A stretch of 64,000 nt of DNA from Candidatus Latescibacterota bacterium. GTDB lineage: Bacteria > Latescibacterota > UBA2968 > GCA-2709665. Shown in pieces: positions 47,010 to 62,906 of this stretch. Below the pieces are notes generated by a model, which saw only the letters and a list, made by a program, of their open reading frames with translations, was not told where the DNA came from and made no database searches. The translations under genes and the position numbers were made by a program. How positions within the stretch are numbered: the first letter of the stretch is position 1; each line of letters starts with the position of its first letter. The stretch is from contig CBDDDZ010000002.1 in NCBI GenBank assembly GCA_965226795.1, forward strand, positions 576,001 through 640,000. Direction: 5' to 3'.

Positions 47010-48179
47010 GTGGCATCTTCACCGGTCATTGCGCAGGTCAGGGTCTGGGAGGTCACGGTGCCGTTGCTGCAGGAGTGGGCCGCCAGCCCGGTATTTGGCG
47101 GTAACCCGAGCAGTATCGACGACCGGTTCGTGCTATGCATCACAGACTCTGAGGGCGTTGAGGGATGGGGCGAGGCCGTCCGGTCCGGCTTGCGTGAGGC
47201 GAACGAGGAAACGATTTCCGGGCTTGTGGGCAGGCCGGTGTCGGCGTTCAGGCTTTCCTTCCTGGAACTGTGGCCACCGGGCCGGCTATACTGGCAGCGC
47301 CCGCCGCCGCCGTCTCCGTACGCGGCCGATCCGGCCAATTTGCAGCACAGGCTGCGCCACCCGTTGCAGGCTCTTGTCGAGATGGCGCTCGGCGATCTCA
47401 CCGCCGGACGGGCGGGCCTGCCCCTGTGTGCTCTGTGGGGCGGCGCCTGGAGGGACCGCGTATCTGTGGATTACTGGATGCCGCGAACCACGCCCGACCA
47501 CGCCGCGAAATGCGTCGAGCGCGGCATGGCACTGGGCTTCTCGGGCGTCAAACTGAAGACGTCGCTCGAAGACCCCAATGTCGAGCGGCTGGAAGCCATC
47601 CGCCACGCGGCGGCGGACTGGCAGGTTACCGTGGATGCCAACGGGCGGTTCTACCGGCTGGACGACGCGATTTCGGTGCTTCGGGAGATGGACCGCGTGG
47701 GCAACATGGCCATCCTTGAGGATCCGTTTCCCCGCTTTCATCTCGAGGAGTTCGCGGAGTTGCGGCGCCGCGTTCAGGCGCGCCTGGTCGTGCACGTCGA
47801 TCCGCCGGAATCGCTGTGGAACGTGCTGACGTCCGGCGCCGTGGGAGGTCTGAATATCGACAGCGCCTGCGGTCTGTACAACTGGCGCCTGCAGGCGGCC
47901 GCGGCGGCCCAGGCGAACCTGCCGGTCTGGCAGGGCAGCGGGATCGACCTGGGGATCGCCACGGCGGCGCAACTCCACCTTTCGGCCAGCGCGCCGAACT
48001 GCACGCTGCCCGGGGATCAGGCGGGTCCGTGGCTGCGGGAGTCCCACCTGCTGACGCGGGATTTCGAAATCGAGAGCGGCCACGTACTGCTCCCCGATGG
48101 CCCCGGCCTGGGGGTAGAAGTCGACCTTGCTGCGGTGGACAGGTACTGTACACACCACCGGACCTGGCCGGCCGGTTGA
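47010..48179 (+). CDS. Enolase-superfamily enzyme (mandelate racemase/muconate lactonizing subgroup)
   Basis: 'EGWGE', KxK ('KLK'), 'VDAN', 'LEDP', 'PDGPGLGVEVD'. Confidence 0.88.
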   Translation: MASSPVIAQVRVWEVTVPLLQEWAASPVFGGNPSSIDDRFVLCITDSEGVEGWGEAVRSGLREANEETISGLVGRPVSAFRLSFLELWPPGRLYWQRPPPPSPYAADPANLQHRLRHPLQALVEMALGDLTAGRAGLPLCALWGGAWRDRVSVDYWMPRTTPDHAAKCVERGMALGFSGVKLKTSLEDPNVERLEAIRHAAADWQVTVDANGRFYRLDDAISVLREMDRVGNMAILEDPFPRFHLEEFAELRRRVQARLVVHVDPPESLWNVLTSGAVGGLNIDSACGLYNWRLQAAAAAQANLPVWQGSGIDLGIATAAQLHLSASAPNCTLPGDQAGPWLRESHLLTRDFEIESGHVLLPDGPGLGVEVDLAAVDRYCTHHRTWPAG

Positions 48180-48206
48180 ACGGGCGACGGACATCACCCG
48201 GACAAC

Positions 48207-48390
48207 AGCGAGACGTTAGACGCATGAGGTCCGCCCAACACCCCGTCGTTGTTCGCCTTGTCTCACGTCTTGCCTATTCCGGTCTTTCGCGCTTTGCCGT
48301 TTCTGACGTCTTACGTCTCCCGTCTCAGGTTTACCCCTGGGTTGGGTCGGGCGGGGAGTGTTGACCGTTGACAGCTTGTTTTCTGACCAG
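48207..48390 (+). repeat. Dispersed intergenic repeat, copy B
   Basis: AGCGAGACGTTAGACGCATGAGG...GACGTCTTACGTCTC...TGACAGCTTGTTTTCTGACCA. Confidence 0.7.
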
Positions 48391-48401
48391 GAGGTCAGCG
48401 A

Positions 48402-48854
48402 ATGGGGTTTACGAGGGTTCACCACGTCAAGTACACGGTTGGCGACCTGGACAGGTCGCTTGCGTTTTACCGGGATATGCTGGGGTTTGAAGTGACCTAC
48501 GAGGCCGCGCGTGAGGCCCTGCCTTCGTACGATAGAATTATGAAGATGCGGGACGTCAAGTTGCGGGTGGGGATGTTGCTTCACAGGCCCACGGGGTTTG
48601 TCTTGGGCCTGGTTCAGTTTCAGAACCCGCCGCCCGTCGAGCGGGAACTGCGCAACAACTATGTCGGGGCATCCAGCCTGGCGCTTCAGGTGGACGACGC
48701 GGTGTCCGAATACGAACGATTGACTTCGGCGGGGGTGGCGGCAACGAGCCCGCCCACCGAAATCGTCCGCGACGGAAAGGTGGCCGCCGTCGCATTCTAT
48801 GTTCTGGATCCGGATGCCATTCCCATCGAGATCTGGCAGCCGGTCGACGCGTAA
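48402..48854 (+). CDS. VOC/glyoxalase-family protein
   Basis: 'HHVKYTVGDLDRSLAFYRDMLG', 'YVLDPDAIPIE'. Confidence 0.88.
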   Translation: MGFTRVHHVKYTVGDLDRSLAFYRDMLGFEVTYEAAREALPSYDRIMKMRDVKLRVGMLLHRPTGFVLGLVQFQNPPPVERELRNNYVGASSLALQVDDAVSEYERLTSAGVAATSPPTEIVRDGKVAAVAFYVLDPDAIPIEIWQPVDA

Positions 48855-48899
48855 AGAGGCGTGGGGAAAGCTGCCGCTTCCTGTTATTGGAGATTGAAA

Positions 48900-51077
48900 A
48901 TGGAGATTCAGGTTCGAGGGCGAGTGATTGAAGATCCGTCGGGACGCGGCCTGGCCGGGGTTTCCGTCTCGAACGGTGAGCGGATTGTTCAGACGAATGC
49001 GGAGGGTCGGTACGAACTCCAGGTGGAACCCGGGTCGCACCGGTTCGTGTTTATCACGCTTCCGGACGGGTTTTCTGCGCCGGATGGGTACTACCGATCC
49101 ACGTGGAACTGGTCGGAGACGCGCGACGGTGTGGATTTCCGGCTTTCGCCGTCTCCCGAACGGGCCGGACGGTCGTTCACGCTCGTGCAGATTACCGATA
49201 CGCACGTCGTTACCGAAGGAGAAACGCTCACGTCGGGAGCCGTGCTTACGGAAGCCCTGCAGCGGCTCGAACGGGAGGCCGGACCCGATCTGATCGTGGC
49301 CAGCGGGGATCTGACGGATTGGGGAACCGTCGAACAGTTGACCGCCTTTCGCAATGCGGTCGAGAAGATTTCGGCGCCCGTATTTCCGTTGTTCGGCGGA
49401 CACGACGGGAACGAAGAGCGCACCGGCGGTATTTCCGTTGATGCGTTCGTAGGACTGAAGACGACGCCGAATAACCCGAAGCTTAAGGAAATCGAAAAGA
49501 AAAACGCCGGCAAGCCCGCTACGCTGCACTTCGAGGAGGTGCTGGGGCCCGCATATTACAGCCTTGATTGGGGCGGGCGGCACTTTGTGTTCTACCCCAA
49601 CGAACAGTCGTACTTCTCGACGTTGGACCTCGAACGCAAGGAAGGATGGTTCTGGGCGGACCTGGCGCTGCAGCCCGAAGACCGCGAAATTGTGGTTGTC
49701 GTGCATACCCCGCCGGCGGATTCGTTTCTTTGCGCGTTGAGTCGGTTCAACGTTCAAATTCTCCTTCATGGACACTGGCACTCCAGCAAGGTATTTTCGT
49801 ACGGTGATATGGTCGTGGCCGCCACCCCGCCGATCTGTTTCGGGGGGATCGACACCTCCCCCAGGGGCTACCGCCTGGTACGGTTCGAAGAGAATAGTTC
49901 GTCCATGGAAGCGGGCGTGCTGCAGTCCGCGGACGCCTCGCGAGCGTCTCAGGAACGGACGCCACCGGAAATCGGATTCGACGGCGTTGCACTGCATCTG
50001 CGCTGGGAGGGACGGATTCCGGGCGGGCTCCACCGGGCGGCGCCCGCGTTGTCCGGAGAGCGCGTGTTTCTGAGCCTGCGCGACGAGGGCTGGCCTGGAC
50101 GAACCGGAATCTGCTGCGTCGACGCAACGAGCGGGGACATGCTCTGGCATGCGCCTACGGATGCGGCGGTCAAGAACAGCCCCGCTATTGATGGCAACGT
50201 ATGCACGGCTGTTTCCGTCACCGGCCGGGTGCACGCGTTCGAGACGGCTTCCGGCGGCCCGTTGTGGGAGGCGGACCTGCCCGGGTATCCCGGGCGCTGG
50301 ATTTACACGTCTCCGGTTATTGCGGATGGAACGGTGTACGCAGGCGCCAAGTCCGGTTACGCTGCCTTCGATCTGACGTCGGGGCGTCGGCGTTGGCATA
50401 CGGTTAACGAAGGCAGTGACAATTGGGCCTGTTACGCCGGCCCTCAGGTTTCCGGCGACCTGCTTGTTCTGCTCGTGCAGCGGATGGGTCTTGTGGCGCT
50501 GGACCGCGAGACGGGGGACGTCGTCTGGGAACGGCCGATCGGGGTGGATTACCCCTATGCAGCGCCGGTCCTGTCGGGAGACCTGATCCTGAGCGGCGGC
50601 GGCGCATCCGACCTTCACCATTTCACGGGGAAAGCATCGCCACTCATCGCGGTGCGGGCGGAATCGGGCAGTGTCGTCTGGAACAGACCGATCCTGCCGT
50701 CCAGATATCCCACGGGACTGCTGGTTCACGACGAGCGGATCTATGCGACCACCCCAGAGGGCGAGGCTCTATGCTTTGACCTGGATGACGGTGCGTTGCA
50801 CTGGCGGTTCCGGACAGGAGATGACTTGCTGGATATGGTTCCCTATCGCAGGGGGGTGCGGTCCATCCTGGCCGCTCCGGTGATGTTCGAGGATCTTCTT
50901 CTGGTCGCCGGGTGCGACGGGATTCTCTATGCCCTGGATCACGCTTCGGGCCGATGCCTGGGCAGCGCTTCCTTCGACTCGCCGATTACGGCGCCTCCAT
51001 GTGCGGTGGAGGGCGGGCTGGTTGTGGGTACGTATGACGGGCGGGTCTTTTGTTTTGAAAGAACGGGGTACAAGTAA
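48900..51077 (+). CDS. Metallophosphoesterase (with N-terminal Ig-like domain) fused to a PQQ-like beta-propeller
   Basis: 'GVSVSNG', 'TDTH', 'SGDLTD', 'GGHD', 'HGHWH', then repeated PQQ/BamB-type blades. Confidence 0.82.
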   Translation: MEIQVRGRVIEDPSGRGLAGVSVSNGERIVQTNAEGRYELQVEPGSHRFVFITLPDGFSAPDGYYRSTWNWSETRDGVDFRLSPSPERAGRSFTLVQITDTHVVTEGETLTSGAVLTEALQRLEREAGPDLIVASGDLTDWGTVEQLTAFRNAVEKISAPVFPLFGGHDGNEERTGGISVDAFVGLKTTPNNPKLKEIEKKNAGKPATLHFEEVLGPAYYSLDWGGRHFVFYPNEQSYFSTLDLERKEGWFWADLALQPEDREIVVVVHTPPADSFLCALSRFNVQILLHGHWHSSKVFSYGDMVVAATPPICFGGIDTSPRGYRLVRFEENSSSMEAGVLQSADASRASQERTPPEIGFDGVALHLRWEGRIPGGLHRAAPALSGERVFLSLRDEGWPGRTGICCVDATSGDMLWHAPTDAAVKNSPAIDGNVCTAVSVTGRVHAFETASGGPLWEADLPGYPGRWIYTSPVIADGTVYAGAKSGYAAFDLTSGRRRWHTVNEGSDNWACYAGPQVSGDLLVLLVQRMGLVALDRETGDVVWERPIGVDYPYAAPVLSGDLILSGGGASDLHHFTGKASPLIAVRAESGSVVWNRPILPSRYPTGLLVHDERIYATTPEGEALCFDLDDGALHWRFRTGDDLLDMVPYRRGVRSILAAPVMFEDLLLVAGCDGILYALDHASGRCLGSASFDSPITAPPCAVEGGLVVGTYDGRVFCFERTGYK

Positions 51078-52351
51078 TGAAGAAGGTAGACCCCGTTGCG
51101 GTGTGGGATGTGCGGCCGTGGGGATGCGATACGTTCCGTGTTGACGATTTCAACGGCGACGGTAAGCATGAGGTGCTTTTTCTGCAGACGTCGGGATGCC
51201 ATGCCGACAGGCGGCACGATCCGAGGGTTCCGGAGTTCAGGGCCTACAAGACCGGCATCGAGGAGCAGGAATTGTTCTGTATGACGCTGGTGGATGGTGA
51301 GGGGAATATCCTGTGGCAGGTGGGAGAACCCTGGGCGCTGGACAGGCCCTTTTCGTGGAACGGGCACTGGAACGAGTTCTGCCACGTGGTGGATTTCGAC
51401 GGCGACGGGCAGGTGGAGATTCTGTTCGTGCACAAGGACGATTTGCGGATCTACGACGGGGCGACCGGGGCGCTGCGCCATCAGGCAGAGATGCCCCACC
51501 CGGGGGCGTATTACACCCGTGCGGTGAGGACCGATCATTCGGGGAAGTACCAAATTTTCGCGCACGTAGATCCCTGTTTTCTGCTGAATTCAAATTTCGA
51601 CGTGGTCTGGGAGAGAGACGCGCCCGGGGCGCTGCCCGGACATTTCGGGTGTTTTGCGGACGTGGACGGGGACGGGCTGGACGAACTGCTGGCCGGGTTC
51701 AGCCTGTTCGACCACGACGGCACGCCGCTGTGGGCCCATCCGCCTGCATCGGAGGGGGACCACCTGGACGACGCCCGCATCGCGGATATCGACGGGGACG
51801 GCCAACTGGAAATCGCCCTGGCGCACGACGGGCGCGACGCGGTGGTTCACAACGACGACGGTACCGAGCGGTTTCGCGTAAAGATGCACCACTGCCAGAA
51901 TATCCTGATCGGGAAATTTTTCGCCGATACGCCCGGGCTGCAGCTGGTTTTGATGGATAAGACAATCGGTCCGGCCGGAAAAAGGGAAGGGGTGGTTGTG
52001 GACGCCGAGGGAAGAGAGCTGTCCCGCCATCTCAATCTGGGGTACTATTCGTCCATTAACTGGGCCACCGATGTGGGTCCTTCGAGTCTGATCCGCGTGG
52101 AACGGCCGGTGGATCCGGATGGTGAGCACCGGGTGATGTGGGTTGCGCCTACTGGCGAGGAACTGGCCAGTTTAAAGGTGCGTTCGAGCTTTTACGACCG
52201 TATCCGACGGCACGGGCTGGACAGGCTTCCCGGACGGGGCCGGTATTACGGAACGGCCCATAGCCCGGCAATTGGCGATGTGAACGGAGACGGGTGCGAT
52301 GAATTGCTGGTGACGGATCGCGAGAGCGTGTGGGTTTTTGAGCGGCCGTGA
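51077..52351 (+). CDS. FG-GAP-repeat protein (rhamnogalacturonan lyase-like propeller)
   Basis: Five D-x-[DN]-GDG-xx-E calcium-blade motifs; 'GDHLD'. Confidence 0.7.
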   Translation: MKKVDPVAVWDVRPWGCDTFRVDDFNGDGKHEVLFLQTSGCHADRRHDPRVPEFRAYKTGIEEQELFCMTLVDGEGNILWQVGEPWALDRPFSWNGHWNEFCHVVDFDGDGQVEILFVHKDDLRIYDGATGALRHQAEMPHPGAYYTRAVRTDHSGKYQIFAHVDPCFLLNSNFDVVWERDAPGALPGHFGCFADVDGDGLDELLAGFSLFDHDGTPLWAHPPASEGDHLDDARIADIDGDGQLEIALAHDGRDAVVHNDDGTERFRVKMHHCQNILIGKFFADTPGLQLVLMDKTIGPAGKREGVVVDAEGRELSRHLNLGYYSSINWATDVGPSSLIRVERPVDPDGEHRVMWVAPTGEELASLKVRSSFYDRIRRHGLDRLPGRGRYYGTAHSPAIGDVNGDGCDELLVTDRESVWVFERP

Positions 52352-53562
52352 GGAAGGGAAACCCTTCAGGAGTGAAGTCCGGAATGCAACCGTTCTTTTC
52401 TGTTGCGCGATTCGATCGGCTTCTGGAATCGGCCGACATGGAGGCGATGCTGTTCTGCCGTCCCGCCTCCTTCCTCTATTTTACGACGTTGCCCTGGTAT
52501 GAAAGGGTCCATTTTTCCGATATGCCGGGACAATATGTCGTGCCGATCGCCGGATACGTTCGCGGTCGCCCGGATCAGGCTTTTTCCACGGCGTCGGCTC
52601 AGATGGATTTCCCGGATTTCAAGGCCCGGAATATCTGGATTCCGGATGTTCGTCCCACAATGGGCGCGGCGTCGTACGAGCGGCAGGCCGAGCATATCAT
52701 CCGGGTTCTCCGCGAAAAGGGCGTTCAGTCGGGCCAGGTGGGCATCGAACGGGGCACGCTTTCCCACGACCTGGTCGCGGCGCTTGATGCTCTCGCTCCC
52801 GATATCCGCTGGACGGAGAGCCGGGAGATACTCTTCAAACTCCAGGAGTTCAAGTCCAACGAAGAATTGGACAGGCTCAGGGCGGCCTGCCGGATCACGG
52901 AAAAGGGGATGATGCGCGTATTCGACCGTCTCGCTGCCGATGTGACCCCCGAGGAACTGATGGACGTCTATGTAAGATCCACCGCGGGACTCTATGCGGA
53001 GCGTTTCGGACATTTTTTTTCGGTCCACTTCAAGGATTTCCACTTTACCGGCCGCGAGTTGAAGGGTCCTCCCCTGAAGCCGGAGACACTCATTCATATC
53101 GACGTGTCAACTGTCTACAAGGGACTCATCTCGGATATCGGGAGGAATTTTTATTTCGGCGCTTCGGTGCCGCCGGAAGTGGAGCGGTGCAGTCTGGCCT
53201 GCACAAGAACAACGCAGGTCGTTTTCGACCATTTGAAACCCGGAATCTCCTGCGCCAAGGTGGACAGCTTGTCGAAAGACGTCCTTTTTGATTCGCTGGG
53301 CGATCCGACAGGCCTCAACGTGGGCTTTCATTCGCACGGAATCGGCTGGATTCTGTACAGCTATCCGTTAATTTCTCCCGAACCGGAAGGTGAAATCCTT
53401 CCCGGCCATGCGTTCACGCTGGAGTACAAGGTGAAATATCCCGGCATTGGACACTTCAAGTGCGAAGATACATTTGCGATGCACGAAAATGGTCCGGAAT
53501 GCCTCTGCGGGCTCGAGCGGAAGCTCTTCGTGCAGTCGGGCGACGCTCCGAAGGGCGGGTGA
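52348..53562 (+). CDS. M24-family (Xaa-Pro peptidase-like) metallohydrolase
   Basis: 'KSNEE', metal ligands in 'HIDV', 'SDIGR', 'HGIG', 'LEY', 'EDT'. Start is GTG 52348 or ATG 52384. Confidence 0.85.
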   Translation: MRKGNPSGVKSGMQPFFSVARFDRLLESADMEAMLFCRPASFLYFTTLPWYERVHFSDMPGQYVVPIAGYVRGRPDQAFSTASAQMDFPDFKARNIWIPDVRPTMGAASYERQAEHIIRVLREKGVQSGQVGIERGTLSHDLVAALDALAPDIRWTESREILFKLQEFKSNEELDRLRAACRITEKGMMRVFDRLAADVTPEELMDVYVRSTAGLYAERFGHFFSVHFKDFHFTGRELKGPPLKPETLIHIDVSTVYKGLISDIGRNFYFGASVPPEVERCSLACTRTTQVVFDHLKPGISCAKVDSLSKDVLFDSLGDPTGLNVGFHSHGIGWILYSYPLISPEPEGEILPGHAFTLEYKVKYPGIGHFKCEDTFAMHENGPECLCGLERKLFVQSGDAPKGG

Positions 53563-53629
53563 TCGGGAGCGGCTCAGGGGCCACAGTGTCGGAGAACGTT
53601 TCAGCCCGTTCCACCGGTCTCCAATCGCC

Positions 53630-53720
53630 TTTGCCTTTTCTAACGTCTTCCGTCTCAAGTCTTACCCTGGATTGGGTTGGATGGGCGGTGTAACCGCTGA
53701 AAGCTCGTTTCTCAGACCAA
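53630..53720 (+). repeat. Dispersed intergenic repeat, partial copy C
   Basis: TTGCCTTTTCTAACGTCTTCCGTCTCAAGTCTTACCCTGGATTGGGT...TGAAAGCTCGTTTCTCAGACCA resembles the 3' half of copy B. Confidence 0.6.
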
Positions 53721-53734
53721 CGGGAGTTTCAGGT

Positions 53735-55168
53735 ATGTATCAAGGGGTTTTGTACGCAGGTGCGGCCCAACGGGTGATTACACCGCCGGTAGGCGTGTCG
53801 ATGTCCGGGTGGAACCCCCGGGCCTCAGGCGATATCAAGTCGCGTTACGTACACGACGATCTGTATGCCAGGGCTCTGGTGCTGTCCAACGGTGAACGGG
53901 CGTGGGCCCTGGTTACCGTCGATCTGACGGGGGTGGACGCGGTCGCGACCGGGCAGATCCGCCGCGGCGCCGCGGCGGTGACGGGGCTTTGTCCCGAAGC
54001 GATTATGATCTGCGCGACCCACACGCACTCGGGGCCGGCGTTCTGCCCCGTGGCCACGACGTACAGCCCGGAGGATATGGCCCGCCTCACCGTAAGGGGA
54101 GATGGCTCGGCGCCCGCCGCCATGGGCGAGGTCACGGCGGTCTCGCCCTCCGCCAGTTGGGTGGGCGAGACAGGCATGGAATGGAAGTCGTGGTTTGTCG
54201 CGCAGGCGGTCGCGGCCGTGGAGGAGGCCTATGATGCGCGGCGACCTGCCGCGGTGGGGTTCGGAGAGGCCCCGGTCGAGGGCGTGGCCAGTTCGAGACG
54301 CGTTCTGATGTCGGACGGGAGTTGGGGAGATCCGAGGCGGGAGTCCGTCGATGGCGTCCGGGTGGTTTCGCGTACGCGGATCGATCCACTGGTGCGGGTG
54401 TTCGCCGTGAGGGAGCAGGGGACCGAAGCGCCGCTGGCGGCAGTGATCAACTACGGCACCCATCCGTGGATTTTCTGCGGATCGGGCATCTCCGCCGAAA
54501 TCGCGGGCGCGGCGGCTGATCGGGTGTCGGAAACGTGGGCGCGCGAAGGGTCCGAACCGCCGGTCGTACTCTATACCGCCGGACCGGAGGGCGACGTCAC
54601 CACAATCTGGAATATCGATATTGAGGCCGTGTGGAAGACCCGACCGGGCGAGGATCCCGAAGCGAGCCTGGCAAGACGGGAGCGGGGATTCGAACGGGAA
54701 CTGGCGCGTCTGAGCGGGCGGGTGGCGCACGGGGCGATGTCGGCGATCGGCGGCGTGGCGGCCTGGGATGCGACGCCGGAGGTGTGGGCCCGCCGGCGGG
54801 AGGTGGCGCTGCCTCTGAAGGAGGGGTACCGCCACGTGGAAGACGTCCTCCTGGCCGATTGGCAGCGTGCGGCGCCGGAATCCCATCACCTCACGGAAGT
54901 ACAGGCGCTGGGGGTGGGTGAGGGGGTCTTTCTGGGGCTTCCTGGAGAACCGTTTACGTCTCTTGGCACGGCAATCCGGGAGCAGTCCGGTTCCCGCCAA
55001 CTGGTGATTGCCGCGCTTGCGAACGAGTTCGGCGCCATCAGCTACGTCGCCGACCGGGAGGCCTTCGACCTGGGAGGGTACGAGACCGCGTTCACTCCCG
55101 TGGGTTCGGGTGGTGGCGAGGCGCTGGTGGATGGCGCGATCGGGCTGTTGGGCGAGACGTTAGATTAA
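53735..55168 (+). CDS. Neutral/alkaline ceramidase-like amidohydrolase
   Basis: 'ITPPVG', 'HDDLYARALVL', 'ATHTHSGP', 'NYGTHP', 'PGEPF', 'GGYE'. Confidence 0.82.
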   Translation: MYQGVLYAGAAQRVITPPVGVSMSGWNPRASGDIKSRYVHDDLYARALVLSNGERAWALVTVDLTGVDAVATGQIRRGAAAVTGLCPEAIMICATHTHSGPAFCPVATTYSPEDMARLTVRGDGSAPAAMGEVTAVSPSASWVGETGMEWKSWFVAQAVAAVEEAYDARRPAAVGFGEAPVEGVASSRRVLMSDGSWGDPRRESVDGVRVVSRTRIDPLVRVFAVREQGTEAPLAAVINYGTHPWIFCGSGISAEIAGAAADRVSETWAREGSEPPVVLYTAGPEGDVTTIWNIDIEAVWKTRPGEDPEASLARRERGFERELARLSGRVAHGAMSAIGGVAAWDATPEVWARRREVALPLKEGYRHVEDVLLADWQRAAPESHHLTEVQALGVGEGVFLGLPGEPFTSLGTAIREQSGSRQLVIAALANEFGAISYVADREAFDLGGYETAFTPVGSGGGEALVDGAIGLLGETLD

Positions 55169-55230
55169 AGGTTTGTGAAGGAGGGCTGACTTCGAGAGTC
55201 TTGTACACCCTTCACAGAGGATTAAACACG

Positions 55231-55965
55231 ATGACAGGGATTGAACCTGCACCCCGTTTGACGGACCTGAGCGGCGCCAGAATTGGACTGCTGGATCCGG
55301 GAAAGCGCAATACCGGCGCCGTCCTCAACGCGATTGGGGAACGCCTTGCAGAAGATTTCGGTGCGAATGTGATTCGTACCTGGACGAAAACGTCGGCATA
55401 TCGCGTAAGCTCGAAGAAACTCGTCGAAGAGATCGTTCCCCAATGCGATGGCCTTGTCATGGGGATGGTCGACTGATGCGGCGCCAGTTCGTGCAGTCTG
55501 CACGATATGCTGGAATTCGAACTGAGAGGCGTTCCGACTGCATATATCACGGCCAGGGGTCGTGTTCCGGCAATCGAACGTATTGAAGGCGGACATCTCT
55601 TGACGCATCGATTGGATAGGGATCTGGCGGCGAAATGGGACGATTCCGGCCAACCGTCCGATCGGCTTCAACGTGACCTTATCCATTTTGGGTTTCATCG
55701 GTTCATGAGGGCGAGTGGGGTGAAAGAGGGCGATCACGTAATCATGGGGGGTAAGAAACTCCGGTGGACCTATCCACGGAAAGAGTTGGAAGCCCGTGTC
55801 AAGCCTGCCGGAATCGGCGCCTGGTCGAGCCGTAAGGACGGTATCATCGGCTACAGAAGCATCGATTTGTCTCCGGACCGCGCACCTGTCGAAGGCGATG
55901 ATTTCGAAGCGTGTGTCCGGATAGCCGTTCCGGAGGTTGTCTCGATTTTGACGGGAGTTAAGTGA
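55231..55965 (+). CDS. UGSC-family-like selenoprotein (Sec at TGA 55474-55476), 244 aa, with an inserted Obg-CTD-like domain
   Basis: Track ORFs 55201 and 55507 are in the same frame, separated only by TGA: ...GLVMGMVD-U-CGASSCSLHDMLEFELRGVPT...; the N-half 'LSGARIGLLDPGKRN' and C-half both fit the UGSC family; SECIS hairpin follows. Confidence 0.85.
55474..55505 (+). promoter_or_regulatory. Bacterial SECIS element
   Basis: TGA, 12 nt, then TCGTGC-AGTCT-GCACGA; closely resembles the apical UGC-AGGUCU-GCA hairpin and spacing of the E. coli fdhF SECIS. Confidence 0.8.
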
Positions 55966-55987: not shown

Positions 55988-56150
55988 GGGCTTGTCGAGA
56001 CGATCGTTGAGCCAGTCGAAGCGTGGTCATTGAGCTTGTCGAAATGCCCGCATATATACAACAAGCAGATATTTTAGAGAGCGCTAATGTTTCGTTACCC
56101 TTCGCCGACCCTTCGACAAGCTCAGGGAGCGGCTCAGAGTGCGGGCTCAG
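55988..56150. repeat. REP/MITE-like palindromic element, copy 2
   Basis: TGAGCTTGTCGAAATGCCCGC...CCCTTCGCCGACCCTTCGACAAGCTCAGGGAGCGGCTCAG; shared with 14615-14745. Confidence 0.75.
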
Positions 56151-56200: not shown

Positions 56201-56230
56201 TTGACAAACCGCAAAATCGTAACGTATTTT
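56201..56230 (+). promoter_or_regulatory. Putative sigma70 promoter for the TBDR operon
   Basis: TTGACA-18 bp-TATTTT in an AT-rich stretch. Confidence 0.45.
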
Positions 56231-56371: not shown

Positions 56372-59300
56372 ATGGGGGATACCGGAATGGACAGGCCGAA
56401 GACTAATCTGGTTGTCACGTTAGCGATCCTTACGGTTTTTGCGTTATCCGGCGCGGCGTTGGCCGGTACTACGGGCAAAATCGTTGGAACGGTGATCGAC
56501 GAGAACGGGGAGCCGCTGCCCGGCGCCAGTGTGGTCCTCGAAGGGACGCGGCTGGGCGCTTCCACGGATGCCGAGGGGTTCTACATTATTCTTTCCGCCG
56601 ATCCGGCAATGTACAAGATGACGGCTTCGATGGTTGGCTACCATTCGGTGACACAGGAGCAGATCCAGGTCCGGTCGGATTTCACCGTGACGCTGGATTT
56701 TCGGCTTCGTGAACAGGAGTTGGAGTTGGAGGAGATGGTTGTCGTTGCTGAAGCCCCTCCCGTGGAGCCGGACAAGACGGAGAGCCGGTACGTGGTGACC
56801 GCCCAGGATATCGCGCGGACGCCAATTCTCAGAGACCCCTCCGAGTTTGTCGCGCTGGAGGCGGGTGTGGCGGTGGACGGCAGCGGCGTTATTCGCGGCG
56901 GTCAGGTGGAAGACAATCTGATCTACGTGGACGGCGTGCGGCTGCAGAGCCAGGACGGGCGCGCCGGACCCACGTCATCCGGAAGGCAGTGGTGGGGCGC
57001 CAACGTAAAGGCGTTGCAGGAGGTCTCCGTGATCACCGGCGGGATGAACGCCGAGTACGGAAACGCGCAGGCGGGTGTGGTGCAGATGGTGACGCGGGAT
57101 GGAGGATCGACGTACCACGGGGAGGCCGAGTATCGGCTGACGCCCGGCGGCAAGAAACACTGGGGCGCCAACATATACGACGCGCCGGAACACCGCGGGC
57201 ACATGCGGTGGAACGATCCCGCGTGGACATCCGAGGTGGATCCGGAGACCGGCGCGCTTGTTCACCAGCGCACAAACTATACGGATCAGCGGGGTCACTA
57301 TTTCGACGGATATCTCGGCGGCCCTCTCCTCCCGGAAACGTCCTTTTTCATCAGTTCGCGGCACCGCCGGGATGCCGCGGCATTTCCGGGGGCATGGTCT
57401 GTTCTTCCGTTCAATTCCCGGAACACGGCAAAGTTGACCATCCGGGCGCACGATAGTGTCAAGATGCAAATCGGGTGGATTCACGACCGTTGGAAGACTT
57501 TCAACAACGGCGGGCTGGGCGGGACAACCCCGTCTGTCAGCAACGTGCTCAGGGGCCCGGGCCGCGACATTTTTCTGCCCGAAGGGTCGCCCGCGGGGGA
57601 AACGGTCAACACCGAGAACGTCGTCTATGGCGTGATAACGCACACGGTCAGCCCACGGACCTTCTACGAATTGAGACTTTCGCGGTATCAGAGCACACAG
57701 GATACCAGCGGCGTTTCGAACACGACGGCGGACATAGGAAGCGATTCGGATGGCTGGTTCTACACCGGCCGGGCGGACGTTCGCGCGTATACCTTCGGCA
57801 AACAGACACGGAGCGGTCTGAAGTTCGACCTGTCAAGCCAACTCACGAAAACGCATTTCTACAAGATCGGGATCGATTTCACGGGCTATAGCAATCATTT
57901 CATTCGTGAAGGCAACACACCCGGTGACGCGCGGAAACAGATCCTGTATATTGGCAACCCGGAACCCGGAACGCCTATCGAGCCCAAGCAGTTCGCGGCC
58001 TATATCCAGGACAAGATGGAGTTCGAGGGTTTCATTGTAAACGCCGGTATCCGCTACGACCGCTTCTGGGGCGCCGACGTCCCGGTGATGGGGGCGTTGC
58101 GGGCGTTCCAGTACACGACGATGTCGCGGTATCTTACGGCGCCCAGGTACCCCATGAAGCCCCTCGTGAACTGGAGTCCTCGGTTGGGTATCTCCCACCC
58201 GATCACGTACAGGTCGAGCCTCCATTTCTTCTACGGTCATTTCTACCAGTTGCCGAGTTTTTATCAGATGTTCCACGACCAGTGGTTCGGCTCGGGCGAC
58301 GGGATACCGGGCATCGGCTTCAGCGAATACACCAGCCACTACCGTCCGGCAACCACGTCCATTGCGCGGCCGATGTGGGACAATACGGCGCGAACGATCA
58401 GCTTCGAACTGGGCGCCGACTGGAACTTCGTGTCCGACTATACCCTCGCGCTGGCGACGTTCTATAAGAGCGCTTCGTTCCAGGAAACCGGGGGTTGGGA
58501 CGTGTTCCTGTACCCGGAGTTGCGTGGGGCGGGCGTCCGCCTCCGCCAGCGGCTCACCAGCAGCCTGTCCAATATCCGCCTTGAAGACACGCGGGGCCTG
58601 GAATTCAGCTTGAGGAAGGGTTTCAGCCACTACTTCTCGTTCCGCGCGGCCCTCAACCTGGCCTGGAGCGACTACAGCCTCGGAGGGGGCGGCACCGTCA
58701 GCAACGGCGCAACAGTGATACCGGATTCGAATTACATTGCCAGCGGCAATTATTTCTTCGCGTGGGAGGTCGCGGGCGGCTCGGAGCGTCCGGTTACCCT
58801 TACGGATGAACAGATCCGGATCATCGGTCACGGCGCCAACGAAGCCATAAAAGCCGCACAGGCGGACCGGCGGGTCGCTGGAGGTTACGTCTACGACATG
58901 TCGACAAACAAGGACGCCATCGTGCCCACGTGGGAGGAAAACTGGTTATCCGAAGCGGCCGCCGAGGGGTCCCGGGGCCTGTGGATCGTGCATGGACACA
59001 GGGCGAATCCGGGCACGGACGTGGGCCGCCGGAGCCAGGGTAGTCTCCAGATGTTCCTGTCCACGCCGCAGGATTTCGGTACGGGGCCGAATATTGCGGG
59101 AAGCACGCTTCTGGGGGGCATCAACGCCAACCTGATCTACCGGATCTATACCGGATCGCAGTTTACGTATCTGGTCCTGGACGGTACGCGCCAGGTAGCG
59201 CGAGGACCATTGCGCACGGCTATGGATCTGAACTTGCAGAAACGCTTCGAAATCGGTCGGGCCAATGCCGACGTGTTCCTGGAGGTCTTCAATCTGTTCA

Positions 59301-59464
59301 ACCAGCAGGACGCGTTGGCCTCGGGAACCGACTATATGTGGTGGGGGCTGCAGACGCCCCGGCCGAACGATGCGAACTATCTCAATTACGGCGATTTTCA
59401 GGATCGCAGCCGGTATATCGGCGAACCCCGGATAACGCACGTGGGTATTCGAATCCGGTTTTAA
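56372..59464 (+). CDS. TonB-dependent receptor with a carboxypeptidase-regulatory-like N-domain
   Basis: Signal peptide, 'GTTGKIVGTV', 'ITGGMNAEYGNA', 'QDKMEF', 'SPRLGISHPI', C-terminal Phe. Start may be ATG 56387. Confidence 0.92.
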   Translation: MGDTGMDRPKTNLVVTLAILTVFALSGAALAGTTGKIVGTVIDENGEPLPGASVVLEGTRLGASTDAEGFYIILSADPAMYKMTASMVGYHSVTQEQIQVRSDFTVTLDFRLREQELELEEMVVVAEAPPVEPDKTESRYVVTAQDIARTPILRDPSEFVALEAGVAVDGSGVIRGGQVEDNLIYVDGVRLQSQDGRAGPTSSGRQWWGANVKALQEVSVITGGMNAEYGNAQAGVVQMVTRDGGSTYHGEAEYRLTPGGKKHWGANIYDAPEHRGHMRWNDPAWTSEVDPETGALVHQRTNYTDQRGHYFDGYLGGPLLPETSFFISSRHRRDAAAFPGAWSVLPFNSRNTAKLTIRAHDSVKMQIGWIHDRWKTFNNGGLGGTTPSVSNVLRGPGRDIFLPEGSPAGETVNTENVVYGVITHTVSPRTFYELRLSRYQSTQDTSGVSNTTADIGSDSDGWFYTGRADVRAYTFGKQTRSGLKFDLSSQLTKTHFYKIGIDFTGYSNHFIREGNTPGDARKQILYIGNPEPGTPIEPKQFAAYIQDKMEFEGFIVNAGIRYDRFWGADVPVMGALRAFQYTTMSRYLTAPRYPMKPLVNWSPRLGISHPITYRSSLHFFYGHFYQLPSFYQMFHDQWFGSGDGIPGIGFSEYTSHYRPATTSIARPMWDNTARTISFELGADWNFVSDYTLALATFYKSASFQETGGWDVFLYPELRGAGVRLRQRLTSSLSNIRLEDTRGLEFSLRKGFSHYFSFRAALNLAWSDYSLGGGGTVSNGATVIPDSNYIASGNYFFAWEVAGGSERPVTLTDEQIRIIGHGANEAIKAAQADRRVAGGYVYDMSTNKDAIVPTWEENWLSEAAAEGSRGLWIVHGHRANPGTDVGRRSQGSLQMFLSTPQDFGTGPNIAGSTLLGGINANLIYRIYTGSQFTYLVLDGTRQVARGPLRTAMDLNLQKRFEIGRANADVFLEVFNLFNQQDALASGTDYMWWGLQTPRPNDANYLNYGDFQDRSRYIGEPRITHVGIRIRF

Positions 59465-59564
59465 GTCATCCGGGTAACAACGCCTGCGGATGAACTCTTT
59501 TTCAGACAGCCCGGACAAACCGGATGCGGGAACAACTCATGCTGACACGAAGGAGACCTGGGAG

Positions 59565-61871
59565 ATGATCAAGTTTCCGAAGATCGAGGCGATAACAGTG
59601 CTTCTTGCGCTGCTTCTGTGCGTGCCGGACCCCGCGGCGGCACAGGAGAACCACAGGTTCCAGACGCGCGCGAAGGTGTGGGACATGTTCTGGAACTATG
59701 GCACCCAGGGCGTTTCCGAAGATCCGGACGCCTGGTTGAGCTATTACCGCCAGATGGGCATGCAATATCCGGGTGTGTGGACCCGACAGTATTCCACGGA
59801 ATTCCAGGACTACTGGGGAGAGCGGAACTGGGGTTCGCTTCATCCGGCCTATGCCGCCCTTTTCGAATCGACGGCCACGATGCCCGGTTTCAGCACGTAC
59901 ATAGCAACGCGCGCGTCGGACGATCCCGACGGCGAATACTACGTGTCCGTGTCGAAGCCTCGCGCCATAACGGACGACATCAGGATGATGTCATACGATG
60001 CGTCCATGGGGCCGGAGGCGACTATCGGGTACCCGAACTATTCTCCCGTAGGGCCCGCGATGGCCAACTGGTGGCCGGGGCAGCCCCCGGTAGAAAGCAG
60101 GTACGTCACCGAGATTCACAACTACCGGTACGGCCAGTATATGGATCCCGATAAAGATACGTTCCCCGAGAGCCTTCTCATTATGCGTTATACCACGAAG
60201 CGGGGGATCACGGTAACCAAAAAGGTCTATACCTGGAGTTATCCGGACTACGACGACTTTCAAATTATGGAATACGAGTTCGAGAACACCGGAGACTCCG
60301 ACGGAGACGGTTCGGCCGACCTTAACGGCGGTGCCGGACTGCAACTGAACGACACCTTTTTCGCCTTTTCGGTGCGATTTTTCATCTCCCAGGCAGGGCA
60401 CGGGTGGATGAACTACGATGCGTGGTACCGAAACACCAAATCGACCGACAACGACGACTGGTTCAAGTTCACCGAGGCGGCCAATTACGACGGCCCGGCC
60501 CTGGGTATGGGCATGAAAATGTGGTACGCCTTCGACGGGGACAACCCGCTCACGCCGGGCGACGACCTGGGCAAGCCATACAACCCTGCCACGGCAAACC
60601 CGGGCTATGTCGGGCGGCCATCGCAGGTGCGGGTACCGGGGGAGTTAACGGCATTTCAGTACACAGGATTCGCGCCCATCGCTTACCGGCCGTCAACCTC
60701 GAACGATCCGGGCACCTTTTCCTACGACACGAATGGCGACAACAGCTACGTCGCCCCCAGAATGGACGATCAGCCCCATACGGTCAGATGGTGGGAATAC
60801 CGGAACCGCGGCGACTTCGACGAGCCGGATCAGGGCAATCATTCCTTCCAGGAAATCTATGAAATGCTGGCGGGCGCCGAATCCGATATCAAAGATAATC
60901 CACCGGTGGTCGGGGCCTGGCATGGGTCGATCGCTTACGGTCCATACGATCTCGCGCCCGGCGACAAGGCCAAATTCGTTTTCGTTCTGGCCGCGGCCGC
61001 GCCCGCGGAAGAGAATATCTGGGGCTGGGCCAAGCTGGGCAACCAGGATGAGATGCGTACGGACAAGGCTTTCAACAACCTGGTCAAGCACGTCGACAAG
61101 GCCAAGGAAGCCTTTCAGTGGAACTACGACCTTCCCGACGCGCCCCCCGACGTGAAGGTCGACGTGAGCGTGACGACGGAAGGCTTCATTTCTCTCGGCT
61201 GGGATGGCACGGCCGACGACGCGGTCAACCCCGACTACTCGGGTGAGGAGGCCAGGGATGTGAGCGGCTACCGGGTATACCGCTCGCTCTTCAAACGCGA
61301 CGCCTGGGAATTGATGCAGGAAATCCCGTTAAAGGCAGATCCGTTTTACAGCGGCGGCAAGTACGAGTTTGTTGATACGAAATCGATTGCGGGATTCCTG
61401 TACGACTACAGTGTCCGCACGTACAGCGAGGCGCACAGCGACTGGAACGGCACCGGAATCGCCATACCCTCTCTGGAAAGCGGGAACAGTTCACCCGAGC
61501 AGTGGGTGAATGGCGTCAAGGTTTCGACCCCCTATGTCCCGTCCACGGCGCAGTCCGACCAACTGGATCGAAAGGTGATTGTGACCCCCAATCCATACCG
61601 GGACGACGGCGCTCACGCCTACGAGACCAAAGGCCAGATCCGATTCCTGAACATCCCGCGGAAGTGCCAGATCAGGATATATACGGTGGCCGGGGATCTG
61701 ATGGCAGAGGTGAATCACGACGACCAGGGGCGGGGCGAGACCACCTGGAGCCAGACAACCATCGACAACGTCGGTTCGGCTTCCGCCGGCGTGTACTTTT
61801 ACGTGGTCGAATCGCTGGTGGATGGGACAACCGGAAAAATTCAACGGGGAATATTCGTAATCAGCAAGTGA
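59565..61871 (+). CDS. Secreted protein with an Fn3-like domain and a T9SS type-A-like C-terminal domain
   Basis: Signal peptide; 'PDAPP', 'GYRVYRS'; tail 'VTPNPY...IRIYTVAGDL...W...AGVYFYVVE...GIFVISK'. Confidence 0.75.
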   Translation: MIKFPKIEAITVLLALLLCVPDPAAAQENHRFQTRAKVWDMFWNYGTQGVSEDPDAWLSYYRQMGMQYPGVWTRQYSTEFQDYWGERNWGSLHPAYAALFESTATMPGFSTYIATRASDDPDGEYYVSVSKPRAITDDIRMMSYDASMGPEATIGYPNYSPVGPAMANWWPGQPPVESRYVTEIHNYRYGQYMDPDKDTFPESLLIMRYTTKRGITVTKKVYTWSYPDYDDFQIMEYEFENTGDSDGDGSADLNGGAGLQLNDTFFAFSVRFFISQAGHGWMNYDAWYRNTKSTDNDDWFKFTEAANYDGPALGMGMKMWYAFDGDNPLTPGDDLGKPYNPATANPGYVGRPSQVRVPGELTAFQYTGFAPIAYRPSTSNDPGTFSYDTNGDNSYVAPRMDDQPHTVRWWEYRNRGDFDEPDQGNHSFQEIYEMLAGAESDIKDNPPVVGAWHGSIAYGPYDLAPGDKAKFVFVLAAAAPAEENIWGWAKLGNQDEMRTDKAFNNLVKHVDKAKEAFQWNYDLPDAPPDVKVDVSVTTEGFISLGWDGTADDAVNPDYSGEEARDVSGYRVYRSLFKRDAWELMQEIPLKADPFYSGGKYEFVDTKSIAGFLYDYSVRTYSEAHSDWNGTGIAIPSLESGNSSPEQWVNGVKVSTPYVPSTAQSDQLDRKVIVTPNPYRDDGAHAYETKGQIRFLNIPRKCQIRIYTVAGDLMAEVNHDDQGRGETTWSQTTIDNVGSASAGVYFYVVESLVDGTTGKIQRGIFVISK

Positions 61872-61952
61872 GACGGCCGAATTACCGAGTCAGGGATTCT
61901 CGATTCGCCTTCTCGTCGAACCGCCAAACAGAAACGGAGAAGGAACAAACCT

Positions 61953-62906
61953 ATGAAACGGATCTTGTGGATTGGAATCGTGGCGTGCGCGGGATACGCG
62001 ATGCTGTTTCCCGAGGGTGCCTACTGCGACACGCAGAAGCGGCTCGGTCAGGCCGTATTCTCCGTGCACAAGGTGGACCATGGGGCGCGTGTCGCGGGCA
62101 TGGGCGGGGCGTTTACGGCCATCGCCGACGACATCAGCACCATCTTTGTGAACCCGGCCGGACTCACCAATGTCGAAGAGATGGAATATACCCTTTCGTA
62201 CACCCGCTGGCTCGTCGATACCCGATTCTATTCGGGTGCGCTCGCCTACAATACGGCCCGCGGTGTGGTCGGGTTGTCCGTGATGGCGTTTTCGGTTCCG
62301 GACGTGGAGGAGACCACCATTTATCAACCGATCGGGACCGGCAGAATGCTGGAAATCGGTGATTTCAGCATCGGCGGTTCCTACGCGACGAAGTTGACCG
62401 ATAAGCTCTCGTTCGGATTTCAGGTGAGGTGGACGCAGGAAACCATCGACGTGGACAGGTTGACCGGTGTGGATGTCAATTTCGGCACCACGTTCAACAC
62501 CGGATTCAGAAGCCTTCGGCTCGGGATGGCGTTCAAGAACCTGGGCAAAGACATTAAGGCCCGTGAAATCAACTACCAGATGCCGGTTGCGTTCGACTTT
62601 GGGTTCGCGGTGGAAGTCTTCGGCGAAAAGGGCAGCGACGCCACCTATCTGACGCTTACGGGAGAGAGCCACTACGCGACGGATTACTCCGAGCCGCGGT
62701 ATCGTTTGGGCGGCGAACTCTGGCTACAGAACGCATTCGCATTGCGCGCCGGTGTGAAACCCGGATACGATACAGAGGTGTACAGTTTGGGTCTGGGGTT
62801 GAAGGTCAAGCCCATCGAGGGCAAGGTCGTCCGCGTCGATTTCGCGTACAGCGAGGGAAACGATTTCGATCCACCGCTTCGCTTCAGCGTGAGCGGATCG
62901 TTCTGA
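61953..62906 (+). CDS. PorV/PorQ-family outer-membrane beta-barrel
   Basis: 'GARVAGMGGAFTAIADD...FVNPAGL', C-terminal Phe. Confidence 0.85.
   Translation: MKRILWIGIVACAGYAMLFPEGAYCDTQKRLGQAVFSVHKVDHGARVAGMGGAFTAIADDISTIFVNPAGLTNVEEMEYTLSYTRWLVDTRFYSGALAYNTARGVVGLSVMAFSVPDVEETTIYQPIGTGRMLEIGDFSIGGSYATKLTDKLSFGFQVRWTQETIDVDRLTGVDVNFGTTFNTGFRSLRLGMAFKNLGKDIKAREINYQMPVAFDFGFAVEVFGEKGSDATYLTLTGESHYATDYSEPRYRLGGELWLQNAFALRAGVKPGYDTEVYSLGLGLKVKPIEGKVVRVDFAYSEGNDFDPPLRFSVSGSF

Follow-up and report, generated by a model that had tools for sequence, protein, structure and literature searches.

A Predicted UGSC-Family Selenoprotein of Candidatus Latescibacterota with a Nested Domain Homologous to the C-Terminal Domain of Obg

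Introduction

The UGSC proteins form an abundant and uncharacterised selenoprotein family (PMC2398784; PMC13188914); few marine selenoprotein families were more abundant in the GOS survey. In the papers cited here, the OCT domain (PF09269, DUF1967) is described only as the tail domain of Obg; its role is poorly defined, although stress signalling and association with the ribosome are reported (PMC9312934; PMC4028186; PMC3775756; PMC5765353; PMC9545696). A gene in the 64,000-nucleotide stretch of a Candidatus Latescibacterota genome analysed here (hereafter, the window) appears to bring the two together. From the letters alone, the original prediction proposed that an OCT-like segment of about 70 residues is inserted in a redox selenoprotein, that this would be an unusual architecture, and that it might couple the protein to the ribosome, the membrane, or RNA. 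Is the segment an OCT domain, how is it built into its host, and what could it do there?

The architecture itself is apparently undescribed in print. No paper on an OCT–UGSC fusion was found in the open literature (subscription papers and bioRxiv supplements lay outside the search), and a 2026 review mentions neither Obg nor DUF1967. In the papers cited above, OCT is otherwise described only in Obg, and the presence of such a domain in a predicted selenoprotein is indeed unusual.

The Gene and Its Nested Insertion

The features of the locus are as follows:

55231..55965, + strand: whole gene, encoding a UGSC-type protein with a nested OCT domain (244 aa if TGA82 is selenocysteine)
55243..55557, + strand: N-terminal part of the UGSC host domain (residues 5–109; PF24696, hhalign, and AF2 model), with predicted strands 1–4 of a Rossmann/flavodoxin-like alpha/beta sandwich
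55474..55476, + strand: in-frame TGA, predicted Sec82, within the motif D-U-C-G-A-S-S-C (55471–55494)
55484..55513, + strand: bacterial SECIS-like hairpin, with an upper stem of 7 bp and a 3-nt loop led by G-U, 19 nt 3' of the UGA
55561..55776, + strand: inserted domain homologous to OCT/DUF1967 (residues 111–182), predicted beta-beta-alpha-alpha-alpha-beta-beta
55777..55827, + strand: linker helix and Gly-rich loop leading from the insert back to the host (residues 183–199), of low model confidence
55828..55950, + strand: C-terminal part of the UGSC host domain (residues 200–240; hhalign and PF24696), with strand 5 and the last helix

The TGA at codon 82 is the only one in frame, and AGAGGA at 55216–55221 is a likely ribosome-binding site. 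The residues quoted in the original prediction were all found, in one + strand frame, and the bounds of the insert moved only from 55550–55775 to 55561–55776.

Membership of the host in the UGSC family follows from a PF24696 match over residues 5–108 (79.8 bits against a gathering threshold of 25, E 3e-22). The fusion protein falls below the cut-off of the NF041046 equivalog (62 bits against 125) and has U-C-G-A in place of the UGSC/UxxC motif given in PMC2398784 and PMC13188914. In hhalign comparisons with a plain UGSC protein, residues 5–109 of the fusion align with residues 15–119 at 98.7% probability, and residues 200–240 with residues 129–169 at 71%, where 100 shuffles reached at most 1.7%; relatives P0050, P0051, and P0058 also match PF24696 positions 127–171. 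About nine residues of the plain protein are thus replaced in the fusion by about 90, comprising ~70 of OCT and ~17 of linker; relative to the family, the fusion carries ~80 extra residues. Because both flanks align to plain UGSC, the OCT-like segment is, on these alignments, a true nested insertion inside the UGSC domain.

An AF2 model of the whole protein (pLDDT 77) predicts a Rossmann/flavodoxin-like sandwich, with pLDDT below 50 in the active-site loop (84–86) and at linker residues 192–206; the linker is shorter in relatives P0052 and P0054. The best fold matches of the host model are WrbA, periplasmic-binding-type domains, and 8S7V chain H (Foldseek E 5e-4, VIA Z 8.3–10.1), with only 5–22% identity over the Foldseek top 10 and the VIA rows and with many ties. 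The protein shares a predicted fold with flavodoxin-like and Rossmann-like sandwiches; the likeness is generic and points to no function. Chain H of 8S7V, a subunit of a methyl-coenzyme M reductase activation complex, is the best VIA match (Z 10.1), tied with generic ones. A thioredoxin-like fold had been suggested as likely for UGSC (PMC2398784); the 50 VIA matches listed for the whole predicted model contain no chain that we recognised as having this fold, and the predicted host fold is not obviously thioredoxin. A plain-UGSC profile search of the PDB found no solved relative.

A possible likeness of UGSC to GrdB/PrdB found no support: PF07355 (GRDB) matched neither the fusion protein nor three plain UGSC proteins, and a genome search was blank, its controls included. 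The fusion protein shows no match to a GTPase family, and the Obg fold and G domain are absent upstream of the OCT domain. No hydrophobic stretch that could serve as a membrane segment was found in it (maximum 19-residue Kyte-Doolittle mean 1.46), and the coupling to ribosome, membrane, or RNA envisaged in the original prediction is so far conjectural.

A Predicted Selenocysteine at Codon 82

The same single in-frame TGA is found in 24 of 25 matches, the 25th being a C-terminal fragment, and three full-length relatives have Cys at the position aligned with Sec82. The hairpin downstream fits the bacterial SECIS consensus rules as quoted in PMC13188914. Four codons of its stem are identical in 23/23 loci, compared with 6/90 of the other codons for invariant residues; its folding energy is no better than that of shuffles (z -1.4 to +0.5). 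In the UGSC family, the Sec codon lies at the same position and the same hairpin core is present. The genome encodes selA, selB, selD, and tRNA-Sec. The hallmarks of bacterial selenoproteins, namely a conserved UGA aligned with Cys, a 3' SECIS hairpin, and the selA/B/D and tRNA-Sec set, are thus found together; TGA82 is likely translated as selenocysteine, and the host can be regarded, as had been proposed, as a predicted selenoprotein.

In the opposite reading, translation would end at TGA82, and the half with the OCT domain would be a protein of its own or the gene a broken one. This reading draws on gene callers, which split the gene at the TGA, and on the C-halves of ~153 aa present in databases. 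This splitting helps to explain the lack of annotation. A real stop is nevertheless highly improbable, for every full copy has its TGA at this codon, the Cys relatives read through, the hairpin is conserved down to its codons, the genome has the full Sec machinery, and one predicted domain would be cut in two.

The Insert Is Homologous to the Obg C-Terminal Domain

In a single sequence, the OCT signal is weak. With PF09269, the whole protein reaches 16.5 bits and the insert alone 18.6 bits (E 0.002), against a cut-off of 27, and the match covers only the C-terminal half of the profile; TIGR03595 is likewise below its cut-off (13.9 bits against 37.65). Among close relatives, only 20/31 match PF09269 at E<=1 (best 1.7e-4). 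A more distant member, P0052, exceeds the cut-off (29.2 against 27), and other relatives narrowly miss it at 26.8 and 26.1. Of the 48,461 frames of the genome, the window ORF scored best with a hidden Markov model of 12 independent OCT domains, yet with an E-value of 1.4, and the two paralogs of the window gene were absent from the best 12 frames. PDB sequence searches with profiles of the C-half and of the insert gave chance matches only, and 1UDX, the T. thermophilus Obg structure, was not found.

At the level of profiles and folds, the signal rises well above chance. A HMMER search of 1.84 billion representatives with a 72-position insert profile (threshold E<=0.001) returned 18 matches: 15 fusion members or fragments, three Obg tails (E 2.9e-5, 7.1e-5, and 2.8e-4, all passing PF09269), and no unrelated protein. 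A word-based search among longer proteins gave 37 matches, of which a single one, an Obg with PF09269 (E 5.2), was an outsider. Comparison by hhalign with four Obgs gave 94.3% probability over 68 columns, a biased choice, as these Obgs had been reached via the word-search match; the comparison with 12 OCT domains collected by whole-Obg queries gave 96.9% over 59 columns, where the reversed control reached 0.55% and 100 shuffles at most 1.4%. In an ESM Atlas search, PF09269 was present in 29/30 matches. In the profile check suggested with the original prediction, the insert alone stays below the DUF1967 cut-off; the link emerges from the insert-profile search and from profile–profile comparison.

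Structure prediction, the second check suggested, agrees. Modelled alone (pLDDT 84), the insert retrieved the OCT domain of 1UDX as its best match both in Foldseek (E 0.017, TM 0.71; runner-up E 1.6, TM 0.25) and in VIA-align (1UDX 342–415, Z 5.5, rmsd 2.6, 66/72 residues; runner-up Z 3.0). Both scores are modest: the Z of 5.5 lies below the tool's caution level of 8, and the structure predictor may lean on 1UDX from its training. The insert resembles the Obg OCT (PF09269/TIGR03595) in its length of ~70 aa, predicted topology, and core residues (G154, G163, G167, D168, and V170, common to the inserts). It differs in being internal to a non-GTPase, in falling below the family cut-offs, and in having new invariant His, Arg, Trp, and Tyr residues.

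Convergence on a short G-x-x-x-G-D-x-V motif would account for Pfam matches that cover, in most members, the C-terminal half only, and for the low identity of the insert to 19 OCT domains (11–33%). We consider it scarcely credible, given that the alignment spans the whole domain (68 columns; 66 of the 72 residues superposed) and that Obg tails are the only outside matches in the exhaustive search. The insert is almost certainly homologous to the OCT domain of Obg. The fusion joins two known, functionally obscure domains and is real and conserved. It reveals OCT as a module capable of moving, and offers a small, soluble natural context for testing OCT binding.

A tblastn search of plasmids with the insert gave nothing meaningful, and an ESM Atlas search with a full-length Cys relative, PF09269 clusters excluded, gave no usable match. 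The ESM Atlas does hold several clusters of stand-alone DUF1967 proteins of 54–83 aa, which may be fragments or free OCT domains. Five weak PF09269 matches lie outside fusion genes among the 168 genomes of the phylum; the frame of one of them is presumably an unrelated repressor.

Distribution, Origin, and Selection

The fusion is present in 22/168 genomes of the phylum, and its relatives are labelled mostly Candidatus Latescibacterota, with some Gemmatimonadota. The source genome has three copies, of which the window copy is 63–70% identical to all other copies. The other two lie in a ~37-kb near-identical block (95–99.6%; G000:C3:1-37574 and G000:C4:854485-896967), which could be an island present in duplicate or could reflect redundant strains within the assembly. 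Another family has a copy that matches the C3 copy at 98% identity. The identity of the C3 copy to the copies of genomes G097 and G104 is 89–91%, while the Obgs of these genomes are only 58% identical to that of the source genome, a discrepancy that points to horizontal transfer of the fusion gene. Seven more distant members share 27–43% identity. Two truncated extra C-terminal copies occur in one genome (G058; L131:11459-11725 and L132:4908-5102), one of which is 80% identical to the divergent lineage of the window and not to the full copy of G058.

In a tree with 19 OCT domains, 14/14 inserts lie on one side of a branch with 100/99 support, which is consistent with an insertion that arose once. 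The inserts join the OCT tree beside P0060, and Chloroflexota-labelled Obg tails are among the best scores; the tree is unrooted, the branch is long (1.21), and the Obg tails in this donor comparison had been picked by the insert profile (P0062 was removed as a near-copy of P0055), and we infer no donor from it. The fusion is under purifying selection: the insert has a dN/dS of 0.17, compared with 0.13 and 0.32 for the two parts of the host and 0.03 for the surroundings of the motif (22 loci, non-independent pairs with a synonymous difference of 0.05–0.6).

The Obg of the source genome itself, encoded by a single obg on another contig, is ~330 aa long and lacks the OCT domain, which settles a question raised with the original prediction. 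The absence is phylum-wide: no protein exceeds the PF09269 cut-off in the 168 genomes, and in the 61 genomes of the class all 57 Obg frames measure 319–385 aa. The insert thus occurs in a phylum whose Obg is without that domain. Since the fusion is found in only 22 of these genomes, a role as stand-in for the lost Obg tail is unlikely.

Departures from Plain UGSC: Motif, Unknown_1, and Surface

Plain UGSC proteins have the motif U-G-S-C-x-x-C in the short form and U-S-T-C in the long form. The fusion has U-C-G-A-S-S-C, in which only positions 82 and 88 are constant across distant members, the last Cys being common to the fusion and the short plain form. Position 85 is Ala or Ser across the Sec clade and Cys in P0049 only.

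A second departure concerns Unknown_1, which we identified from Fig S1A of PMC2398784. This domain of ~330 aa belongs to no Pfam family and has a conserved Cys; in the seven loci read, it is either a neighbour of plain UGSC or its fusion partner. As in the UGSC/Unknown_1 fusion of that figure, the protein described here joins UGSC to an extra domain, and both forms occur in the phylum; Unknown_1, however, is joined end-to-end or encoded next door, whereas OCT is nested, mostly where Unknown_1 is undetected. Unknown_1 was found in 41/168 genomes: each of the 40 that have a UGSC free of OCT, and a further one that has a fragment. With one protein query, it turned up in 0/18 genomes whose sole form is the fusion, 14 of which belong to one genus, so that the 18 represent few independent events; these fusion-only genomes have it neither as neighbour nor as fusion partner. 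Four genomes have both the fusion and a UGSC–Unknown_1 gene. For UGSC biology, the clue is that Unknown_1 accompanies every plain UGSC in the phylum, while the OCT form dispenses with both Unknown_1 and the UxxC cysteine.

Unknown_1 is seen, for example, at L087:500-1483, at L067:115-1461, and in L089, and some of its copies have an extra N-terminal domain. In G104, a long UGSC–Unknown_1 gene (L130:10573-12197) that lies ~3 kb away from the gene with the OCT domain carries a frameshift, as though it were decaying in the presence of the OCT form.

The third departure lies in the insert itself. Besides the OCT core, R111, H126, H156, R157, R160, W179, and Y181 are fixed in the inserts, and H126, H156, R157, and R160 are kept in 12–14 of 14 inserts and not in the 19 OCT domains. 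Net charge is positive in 14/14 inserts. In a wide alignment, 9/12 invariant columns fall inside the insert, the N-terminal host being missing from 7/14 rows.

These residues bear on a purely structural explanation, in which OCT is kept for stability or self-association and has no outside target. Many invariant residues of the insert are of the fold type and shared with OCT domains at large, and in the 1UDX crystal the C-terminal domain touches a neighbouring molecule (PMC9545696). A structural role nonetheless appears unlikely to us, as the insert-specific R111, H126, H156, R157, R160, and Y181 are fixed across proteins only 27–43% identical, and it leaves the absence of Unknown_1 unexplained.

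The same histidines could instead belong to a site that binds or detoxifies a metal or metalloid, together with Sec82, Cys83, Cys88, and H91 of the host, H126 and H156 being contributed by the insert as a lid. The vicinal U-C, Cys88, and the conserved histidines would suit such a site, and PMC13188914 tabulates a metal-binding selenoprotein that has a CU motif. Other observations argue the other way: of the three distant full-length relatives, two have Ala or Gly in place of Cys83; several relatives have Arg in place of H91; H126 is Tyr in 2/14 inserts; and no metal-resistance gene was recognised among the shared neighbours. We consider a metal role quite doubtful.

A Possible Role for the Inserted Domain

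Our tentative proposal, which we hold with slightly less than even confidence, is that OCT acts as a target-selecting lid next to the selenocysteine of a Sec-dependent oxidoreductase with an anionic target, and that it replaces Unknown_1. The 3' end of an obg gene would have been captured into a UGSC gene, probably once. In the AF2 model, U82 follows the predicted strand 74–80 (strand 3) and the insert follows strand 103–108 (strand 4). Strands 3 and 4 are neighbours in Rossmann/flavodoxin-like folds, and their C-terminal loops share an edge. By this predicted secondary structure, the insert would sit in the loop after strand 4 and share an edge with the Sec82 loop. Sec82 would attack an oxidised substrate; as the usual UxxC cysteine is gone, resolution might fall to the invariant Cys88 or, in the window clade, to the neighbouring Cys83. 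The lid residues R111, H126, H156, R157, R160, W179, and Y181 would grip the anionic partner, and the lid would supersede the Unknown_1 domain of plain UGSC proteins. Read-through as Sec, the redox chemistry, and the function of OCT as a lid are all inferred here, and the last, which we put forward with the same reserve, rests on position, conservation, and co-occurrence in a setting where UGSC, Unknown_1, and OCT have no known function. No conserved operon that would name the substrate was found across the fusion loci.

The ribosomal coupling of the original prediction corresponds to another proposal, in which OCT would dock the selenoprotein on the ribosome, Obg, or stress regulators and place ribosome assembly or the stress response under redox control. 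The basic charge of the insert would suit docking, as would the Obgs of the class, which all end without OCT. Set against this are the patchy (22/168) and apparently mobile occurrence of the fusion, unlike core translation machinery; an Obg that is without OCT in genomes with and without the fusion alike; a conserved insert surface unlike that of the Obg OCT; and the lack of any visible linkage to obg or ribosomal genes. Docking of this kind seems to us distinctly improbable. The same low probability attaches to its bolder form, in which a captured Obg tail would re-target the selenoenzyme to the sites of Obg-OCT (the ribosome or stress-signalling proteins) and free it from Unknown_1, as a mobile single-gene redox switch passed between host-associated bacteria.

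Genomic Surroundings and RNA

For the 25 loci, no obg or ribosomal gene appeared among the 40 largest ORF clusters listed as shared between them, five of which were scanned. The neighbours that fusion loci do share are a glyoxalase-like gene (15/25) and a PhyH-like gene (12/25), both absent beside the window copy; this is synteny among close kin. Upstream of the window copy, a same-strand run of catabolic appearance (47010–55168) comprises enolase-superfamily, glyoxalase, metallophosphoesterase with beta-propeller, FG-GAP repeat, M24 peptidase, and ceramidase-like genes; it was not recognised beside other fusion copies. Downstream (56372–62906) lie a TonB-dependent-receptor-like gene, a gene for a 793-aa protein with a weak match to a type IX secretion signal, and a PorV-like gene. 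A sigma-70-like site precedes this cluster at 56201–56230, in a promoter and terminator scan that performed at chance level.

Contigs from the 4 metatranscriptome runs compared, out of 19 listed, cover parts of the gene. One RNA-library contig reaches from the TGA across to where the insert begins, and a contig from a run labelled sponge metagenome equals 55590–55792 with no difference. The intergenic gap is covered by RNA as well, and since DNA carry-over is possible, this coverage is no proof of expression. Just 3' of the gene, at 56015–56145, lies an intergenic palindromic repeat, one arm of which has ~40 BLAST matches in the genome and which we take to be a REP/MITE-type element; RNA-library contigs pile up on it.
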